The notes beneath the pieces were generated by a model. That model was given only the letters and a program-made list of their open reading frames with translations. It was not told the origin of the DNA and searched no databases. A program made the translations under genes and the position numbers. A stretch of 42,690 nucleotides of DNA from a virus (Duplodnaviria; Heunggongvirae; Uroviricota; Caudoviricetes). Positions 28,003 through 28,680 of this stretch are shown here, piece by piece; the first letter of the stretch is position 1; each line of letters starts with the position of its first letter. Location of the stretch: the IMG/VR virus record IMGVR_UViG_2718217863_000003; one strand, given 5' to 3'.

Positions 28003-28212
28003 CAGCCCCTCCGGAGAGGGGCTGGAGAGTGGCGCTATGTGCCATTGCATGGTGCCGGGTGCCTCCCGGTGAATTCAGTACCAGCACCTGAATCCGCGAT
28101 TATCCCATATACCTACTCGCTGATTACCCCTCCGCACAGGGGGATTCACCATGCGAAATTTTTTAACAAACTTCCCGCCGGCCAGACAATAATCGCCAGC
28201 CTGAATTATGAG
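28003..28212. repeat. copy A of a diverged tandem noncoding module (hairpin/terminator plus inverted-repeat core)
   Basis: shared blocks GCCCCTCCGGAGAGGGGC, GCATGGTGCC.GG.GCCTCCCGGT.AATTCAG, GGGGGATTCACCATGCGA, CCAGACAAT.ATC. Confidence 0.6.
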
Positions 28213-28464
28213 CAACGTGGCATTTTACGGGAAAACTGTTTTCTGCAGTAAAAAGGCCCGCCGGAGCGAGCCTGGAAGGATAGCGGTCATGTGATGCCGG
28301 TTTCCCGGTAACTCAGCATCGGTATCTGAGTCAACGTTTTCTCTACTGGGTCATTTCCGATACGTTCCGCCTTCCGGCAGACTTTCATCACGTCAGAAAA
28401 TATAGCACCCTGAGTAACAGGACAGTACTCAGAATTCAGGAAACTGTGACACATCCTGCACAGA

Positions 28465-28680
28465 AAAGCCCCTCCGGAGAGGGGCTGAAGTATAGCCTAA
28501 TTTCTGTCTGTCGCATGGTGCCAGGGGCCTCCCGGTAAATTCAGCCTGTCTACTGAATTTGCATGTTCTCTGGATCATACACTTTGCCAGATGCCCCGCC
28601 GCTGAGGGGGATTCACCATGCGATGTAATTTTTAACAAATTCTCCGGCAGCCAGACAATCATCAAGCTGTGGAATTGTGA
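28465..28680. repeat. copy B of the same tandem noncoding module
   Basis: same conserved blocks as copy A, 462 bp to the right. Confidence 0.6.

Follow-up and report, generated by a model that had tools for sequence, protein, structure and literature searches.

What does this prophage carry between its Q antitermination gene and its lysis genes? The window analysed here is a stretch of 42,690 nucleotides from a virus of the class Caudoviricetes (IMG/VR record IMGVR_UViG_2718217863_000003), and the preliminary description of it pointed to two diverged noncoding modules in this place, which it could assign to no known sRNA family. Our analysis leads us to a different answer, which we hold with good though not full confidence: the locus is probably a head-to-tail array of three paralogous sRNA genes of the STnc100/PasD kind, each a self-contained unit, lying between Q/tRNA-Ile/DUF3927 and the lysis cassette.

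The family identity of two of the units is the simplest part of the question. When the window is scanned against Rfam 15, two full-length matches to RF02076 (STnc100; Rfam name 'Gammaproteobacterial sRNA STnc100') are returned, both on the minus, late strand. Copy B (28458-28651) scores 138 bits (E 1.8e-30) and copy A (27994-28182) scores 132.5 bits (E 4.6e-29); each covers model positions 1-206, the full model span, and lies about 85-90 bits over the curated gathering cut-off of 47 bits. The modules that seemed unassignable thus belong to a catalogued family, and copies A and B are canonical STnc100 members; what they add is further copies of an already known type of prophage sRNA. STnc100 is known from lambdoid prophages of E. 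coli and Salmonella; it includes EcOnc27/sRNA103, and PasD1/PasD2 are related to it.

The conserved blocks by which the modules had been recognised are indeed there: 28047-28078 and 28513-28544 are 91% identical, 28127-28156 and 28594-28623 are 90% identical, 28160-28194 and 28629-28663 are 83% identical, and the terminator blocks 28001-28027 and 28464-28490 are 93% identical. The Rfam E-values exclude chance. Overall the two copies share 63% identity, distributed as a mosaic (P1/P2 89%, P5-P6 73% and terminator 92%, but variable arm 33% and linker 30%). The suggested likeness of an end motif to ERIC ends has dissolved, since GGGGATTCAC is the P1/P2 junction (GUGAAUCCCC) of the RNA. A permissive Rfam scan of 27850-29250 gave no repeat-family match, and none to AsxR/AgvB (RF02703/RF02702) even at E <= 10. 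A scan of 596 Gb of genome contigs with the 14-mer CGCATGGTGAATCC was discarded: the pattern is too short, and among the matches listed all came from unrelated phyla, apparently by chance. Elsewhere in the window further Rfam matches over the cut-off are an ALIL frameshift pseudoknot (282-398, plus) of an IS3-type element, the sok antitoxin RNA (32076-32251, minus) beside hokD, and DicF (38135-38186, plus).

Are there only two copies? The start-to-start spacing from A to B is 466-469 nt, so that the copies are not adjacent, and 27990-28700 contains three strong minus-strand intrinsic terminator-like hairpins, not two; terminator-like sites in the region number 11, against 2.0 +/- 1.4 in shuffles. 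The terminators are spaced by 250 and 213 nt, which points to three units, each about 210-250 nt long, and not to two neighbouring ones. Indeed, the interval of 275 nt between A and B contains a third unit that the preliminary description overlooked, copy M (28247-28422, minus), equipped with an extended -10 promoter and a terminator of its own. In the permissive scan of 27850-29250 it gives a weaker but full-length match to RF02076 with 30 bits, at an E-value of 2.5e-4 that refers to this 1.4-kb search. Since this score is under the cut-off of 47, we file copy M as a diverged STnc100/PasD-like relative, not as a certified member; PasD1 and PasD2 score at a comparable level with the same model (37.7 and 41.4 bits, also under the cut-off), which links the families.

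Copy M folds into the same architecture as A and B (z = -2.60). Its closing helix, ACGUGAUG/CAUCACAU, differs from that of A and B by three compensatory pair changes, and its P2, P5 and terminator stems differ in sequence with complementarity kept. A variant about 91% identical occurs in S88, where the P2 hairpin is retained via a double change from U-A to C-G. The covariation evidence for copy M is thin, because there are only two major sequence variants. The type is found in 673 of 5426 complete E. coli genomes (about 12%), as these two variants, and in both layouts examined it sits between two canonical copies. Judged by its sequence, copy M looks like a functional gene, and as a third, sub-threshold paralogue it is one of two modest additions that this locus makes.

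The location was proposed to be the cargo slot in which Stx phages carry stx, and RefSeq gene order, Pfam matches and the corresponding slot of an Stx2-type contig bear this out. Along the minus strand the order is Q, a tR'-like terminator, a tRNA, the DUF3927 mini-ORF and the three RNA units. The Q-type antitermination protein (29221-30042, minus; PF03589, E 1.2e-54) defines the late-operon context, and directly after it comes a PR'/tR'-like segment (29114-29220, minus). It is followed by a tRNA with a CAU anticodon (29002-29077, minus), called Met(CAT) by ARAGORN and tRNA-Ile by RefSeq, and, directly upstream of the array, by the small DUF3927 ORF (28740-28856, minus; PF13064, E 5.8e-11, present in RefSeq), which also precedes PasD1 and PasD2. 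Beyond copy A lie an iraM-like gene on the plus strand with IS30, a DUF1737 fragment, a class II holin, YdfR, lysozyme and Rz. The iraM-like anti-adapter gene is a moron convergent with copy A, and it is split into an N-terminal part (26561-26797, plus) and a C-terminal part (27855-27968, plus) by an inserted element with an ISApl1-family IS30 transposase (26871-27845). ISApl1 is the element known for mobilising mcr-1.

This is the context typical of RF02076 (late strand, downstream of Q, upstream of the lysis genes of a lambdoid prophage), and an equivalent one is found in S88, in the Stx2-type contig and in 15 other viral contigs. The Stx2-type viral contig, L149, has one STnc100 unit in the same slot with AsxR convergent to it, and according to two papers STnc100 lies some 75 nt downstream of stx2B. 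The region 27850-29250 is 100% identical to E. coli chromosomes such as MRSN346595. Three further observations concern the neighbourhood. The segment 29114-29220 has sub-threshold Rfam matches to Trp_leader (25.7 bits) and isrK (14 bits), and IsrK-type RNAs exceed the cut-off in the related contigs L136 and L137. A remnant of a tRNA-Arg(UCU)-like gene (gttagctcagccgggcagagcaattgccttctaagc) lies at 28850-28990 (minus) and is called by neither ARAGORN nor Rfam. The homologous slot of S88 holds a tRNA-Ile and two tRNA-Arg.

Does each unit begin at a promoter of its own? A promoter-like box consisting of a -35 TTGTCT, an 18-nt spacer and TGt-TAAAAA precedes copy B (28629-28658, minus; -35 at 28658-28653, TGt-TAAAAA at 28637-28629) and copy A (28160-28189, minus; -35 at 28189-28184, TGt-TAAAAA at 28168-28160). 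It is conserved between A and B and across the STnc100 family, and the PasD promoter has TTGACT, 18 nt and TAAAAA. For copy M an extended -10, TGc-TATATT (28399-28407, minus), can be read from the sequence; the promoter block TCAGGGTGCTATATTTTC is identical in the window and in the S88 variant of M, and the flanks vary. A scan with the generic sigma-70 consensus gave only two plus-strand matches, at chance level, and left the minus-strand boxes uncalled; the -10 TAAAAA agrees with the consensus in only 4 of 6 positions. Because the generic scan missed the boxes, our promoter assignment relies on two things, conservation and the 5' end mapped for PasD. For PasD1 this end was placed at NC_011601:1060260 by RNA-seq, consistent with a Northern blot; the position is exactly the G of GCAUGGUG and lies 7 nt downstream of the -10. 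In copy B the G of GCAUGG, at 28621, is also 7 nt past the -10. In LT2, an RpoD ChIP-exo signal has been reported at STnc100 promoters.

By analogy with PasD, a sigma-70 promoter would start each unit in the window, with transcription beginning on, or close to, the initial base of GCAUGGUG (for M, of ACGUGAUG). The predicted transcripts run on the minus strand from about 28621 to about 28463 in copy B, from about 28393 to about 28249 in copy M and from about 28154 to about 27999 in copy A. EcOnc27 is seen on Northern blots at about 235/247 nt, which is 60-75 nt above the span from GCAUGG to the terminator, so some members may begin further upstream, or arise by processing of a longer transcript. 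As a separate observation, an operator-like palindrome, TGACAGttgcCTGTCA, is present in many members (those of L129, L149, L203 and others) immediately before the TTGTTAAAAA box, some 20-45 nt upstream of GCATGG; the STnc100 copies of the window lack it.

All three units share one order of parts: promoter-like box, 8-bp closing helix, internal hairpins, linker and terminator. Folded individually from the G of GCAUGGUG to the U-tract, copy A gives an MFE structure equal to its centroid and matching the family architecture (z = -3.16), and the MFE fold of copy B has this architecture as well (z = -2.57). In both, P2, a variable arm, P5 and P6 lie inside the closing helix GCAUGGUG/CACCAUGC, and in all three units a single-stranded linker of 16-26 nt separates this 5' domain from the terminator. 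The individual MFE folds thus reproduce the RF02076 consensus structure (closing helix, P2, P5, P6, terminator). The modules had been described as discrete noncoding transcript units of the late strand, and the predicted structures agree with this reading at a length of about 160-200 nt.

The preliminary description had asked for an alignment of the copies and for covarying stems. We aligned 16 diverse members from IMG/VR contigs, including PasD1 and PasD2 of E2348/69. The Rfam-like structure, which has 33 pairs, is paired in 91.6% of the cells of this alignment, against at most 51.5% when the partners are slid; double changes are seen on 12 of the 33 pairs, and the observed values are attained in none of 500 shuffles. 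A de novo RNAalifold consensus of the MAFFT alignment paired GGUG with CACC in P6, not with CACCAUGC, but we set it aside, since the explicit test strongly supports the Rfam-like structure. In copy 1 of contig L203 the closing helix reads GCAUAGUG/CACUAUGC, a compensatory variation. The inverted motif GCATGGTG...CACCATGC had been taken as the boundary of either a folded RNA or a MITE-like unit. It is real and makes the closing helix of the fold, so the first of these suggestions holds; the second does not, since the motif is internal and the compensatory changes in M, in its S88 variant and in L203 argue for a helix of the RNA that is under selection and against the end of a transposon. We also considered a CsrA decoy, because GGA occurs in P2 and P6, and rejected it: the GGA of P2 is missing from copy B and from several other members.

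Could the units instead encode small proteins, either a near-leaderless MVNPP... peptide from the AUG of GCAUGGUG or fragments of a protein gene? There are reasons to ask. The AUG lies 2 nt from the predicted 5' end, some STnc100 copies of EDL933 have ribosome-coverage values above 1, RefSeq has a partial 'hypothetical protein' pseudogene over copy A (28039-28164, plus), and the phage records ON470607, ON470612, ON470619 and ON470621, which contain the array at 100% identity, annotate hypothetical proteins. However, none of the four ORFs over the units has a Pfam match, and their strand and frame differ between the copies, which agrees with the initial view that no ORF is common to them and speaks against fragments of a known coding gene. 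The MVNPP frame is closed by a stop after 9 codons in copy A and after 14 in copy B, what is conserved of it falls on the P1/P2 stems, and substitutions in the stems are compensatory. We consider coding units improbable in the extreme, and the 'hypothetical protein' calls over the sRNA units look spurious.

A more serious objection is that the RNAs might be by-products and that the units act mainly in cis, as a stack of three terminators or insulators which keeps the lysis genes silent without Q. Each copy had been said to end in a strong late-strand terminator, and so it does: copy B at 28463-28486 (stem 28486-28467) and copy A at 27999-28024 (stem 28024-28003), both on the minus strand, with stems of 8-9 bp, a 4-nt loop and a T-run that gives the U-tract. 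Copy M adds a third at 28249-28273 (minus; stem 28273-28254, then UUUUU). Three strong late-strand terminators in series thus stand between PR'/tR', with its own strong terminator at 29140-29121, and the holin, and the terminator is among the most conserved segments (72-92% identity). A stack of terminators, however, needs neither a conserved multi-helix 5' domain of 100 nt maintained by compensatory changes nor a conserved promoter-like box before each unit, and it leaves the hypervariable linkers unexplained. Moreover, homologous RNAs accumulate in discrete form, bound to Hfq, and have many partners in chimeras. A role mainly in cis is, in our opinion, unlikely, and we return to the reading of the units as sRNA genes.

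What would such RNAs do? Here the best guides are the relatives. Copies A and B share with EcOnc27 the STnc100 fold and the late-strand position downstream of Q and tRNAs and upstream of the lysis genes. The Northern probe that Tree et al. used for EcOnc27 is exactly the reverse complement of linker and terminator in the L149 unit, and EcOnc27 is for this reason an STnc100 member. It was recovered by Hfq crosslinking (CRAC) and is partly Hfq-dependent, its 247-nt form being destabilised without Hfq. EDL933 transcribes 11 STnc100 copies, one of which (STnc100_4) is Northern-confirmed. The arrangement differs, in that EcOnc27/sRNA103 of the Stx2 phage Sp5/933W is one unit after stx2B, whereas the window has three tandem units. 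sRNA103 affects fimZ/espA without an established mechanism, and for no STnc100 member has a validated direct target been reported in the literature.

The relation between STnc100 and PasD was reported in a preprint by Zhu, Shabalina and Storz. PasD1 and PasD2 of EPEC E2348/69 (EcOnc13 in EHEC) share with the window units the 5' start GCAUGGUGAAUCC, the TTAAAAAA box and P1/P2/P5, and the neighbours of PasD, a DUF3927 ORF directly upstream and a PF03589 Q protein, are present here too. On the other hand, PasD has no P6 hairpin, a longer linker with the seed UGUGAG and another terminator; at the nucleotide level alignable sequence is limited to the first 25 nt and some of P5, and UGUGAG is in none of the three linkers of the window. 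PasD1/PasD2 are Hfq-dependent on Northern blots, and their RIL-seq chimeras fall in the 3' 50 nt, with the seed UGUGAG in the linker. From these homologues (EcOnc27, PasD, and the copies of EDL933 and LT2) we conclude that the window most likely carries three independent genes for Hfq-dependent trans-acting sRNAs with different seeds, the seed lying in the linker. In the window units themselves Hfq dependence, seed location, targets and exact 5' ends are predicted by this analogy.

Two other comparisons are useful. The anti-sRNAs AsxR/AgvB occupy the same moron slot of lambdoid prophages, bind Hfq and are often convergent with an STnc100 unit (matches are present in L149, L140, L162 and L186), but they are of 51-60 nt, on the opposite strand and unrelated to STnc100 in sequence. 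The window has no such convergent partner; the iraM-like gene converges instead. OmrA/OmrB and PrrF1/PrrF2 are adjacent paralogues with a terminator/Hfq module in common and differing variable regions. Those, however, are pairs of the core genome, while the window has a three-member prophage array, apparently reshuffled by phage recombination. The Storz preprint cites tandem paralogous sRNAs as a contrast case, and this 2026 preprint describes copies of PasA and PasD as far apart, not in tandem.

If the seed is in the linker, the linkers should be looked at closely. Among the 16 aligned sequences mean pairwise identity is 86% in P1/P2, 70% in P5-P6-P1' and 72% in the terminator, and only 33% in the variable arm and 25% in the linker. 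The linker of copy B (28487-28512, minus), with the putative seed GACAGACAGAAAUUAGGCUAUACUUC(A), is unpaired in the MFE fold; it is a variant of the EcOnc27 type and resembles the EcOnc27 linker (ACAGA-AUUAGGC-AUA). That of copy A (28025-28046, minus), with the putative seed AAUGGCACAUAGCGCCACUCUCC as judged from the fold and from segment identity, is of a different type. The 3' part of the copy A linker, CUCUCC, is anti-Shine-Dalgarno-like and the M linker (28274-28289, minus) ends in anti-SD-like CCUUCC; the copy B linker is not anti-SD-like. In copy B the stretch GACAGACAG is an exact complement of GcvB nt 154-162, which made us consider an anti-GcvB sponge, but the energy of -16.5 kcal/mol is matched by 39% of shuffled linkers and we dropped the idea; a comparison of the A and M linkers with GcvB found nothing.

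The same linkers recur on different scaffolds: that of copy A is found identical in L186 and L200, and that of EcOnc27 also in L152. Single-copy hybrids with the promoter region of B and the body of A occur in L161 (4096-4286) and L237 (around 10778), and they look like the expected product of an unequal recombination which collapses a three-unit array. Sequence comparison thus indicates that the linkers behave as exchangeable modules. Arrays are not a peculiarity of this window. S88, L126 and L129 have the same layout of a strong match, M and a strong match, with a different downstream copy. In L203 four head-to-tail STnc100 copies (6956-7937) follow one another with a period of about 265 nt, and a fifth lies about 1.8 kb upstream (4984-5196); the linker differs in each of the five. 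Found in the window, S88, L126, L129 and L203, tandem arrays are a recurrent trait of the family, and we found no description of STnc100 arrays in the papers examined that mention it. Of 5426 complete E. coli genomes, 2858 contain sequence like copy A, at as many as 12 places in a single genome; 356 contain the copy B type, and 314 contain at least 80% of the 1.4-kb array query (27850-29250).

These very facts could be turned against RNA genes. The near-invariant blocks GCATGGTGAATCCCCC and CACCGGGAGGCACCCGGCACCATGC flank segments that are reshuffled among phages, hybrid units exist, identical linkers are found on different scaffolds, and the family is multicopy; the conserved blocks might then be DNA hooks for the exchange of morons by recombination, or a mobile repeat of the MITE/ERIC kind. 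Yet any repeated gene is expected to recombine at its conserved blocks, and the diverged members (M, PasD and copy 1 of L203) keep their helices by double substitutions, a mark of selection on RNA pairing and not on the sequence of the DNA. Nor do the unit ends have terminal inverted repeats or target-site duplications, and all members examined lie in one prophage slot and in one orientation. We regard hooks or mobile repeats as very unlikely. More tentatively, and at slightly less than even chances, we propose that the array is a seed-diversified cassette, in which one structured scaffold is reused together with its promoter and terminator, linkers are swapped by phage recombination and units are stacked, and that M is an expressed third subfamily beside STnc100 and PasD.

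How the array of sRNA genes might work can be outlined. From each start the RNA would fold into its compact 5' domain, held by the 8-bp helix around P2, the variable arm, P5 and P6, to be followed by the unstructured linker of 16-26 nt and a GC-rich Rho-independent terminator with a U-tail; terminator, U-tail and linker together would form the Hfq-binding and seed module. No two of the three RNAs have the same linker, and each should therefore act in trans on target RNAs of its own. The targets could be mRNAs of the host or of the prophage, and possibly their ribosome-binding sites, given the anti-SD-like linkers of A and M. In the lysogen the terminators would stop both sRNA transcription and un-antiterminated transcription from PR' before the lysis genes, and during lytic growth the Q-modified polymerase would read through them.

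What is new here is limited to copy M and the view of the array as seed-diversified; the rest belongs to a known family. The practical result is that the window should be annotated with three sRNA genes in place of the spurious 'hypothetical protein' calls, and diverged members such as copy M are missed by annotation based on cut-offs. The RNAs of the STnc100 family rank with the most abundant sRNAs annotated in genomes of enterobacteria, and they adjoin stx2. In one machine-learning study, variants in one STnc100 copy are the strongest genomic predictors of HUS; these HUS-associated variants, at +90 and +103 after stx2B, are within the predicted STnc100, and by arithmetic from a start about 75 nt after stx2 they would fall in or near the TTGTTAAAAA box. 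Arrays that carry different linkers on a common scaffold would be useful for the design of experiments.
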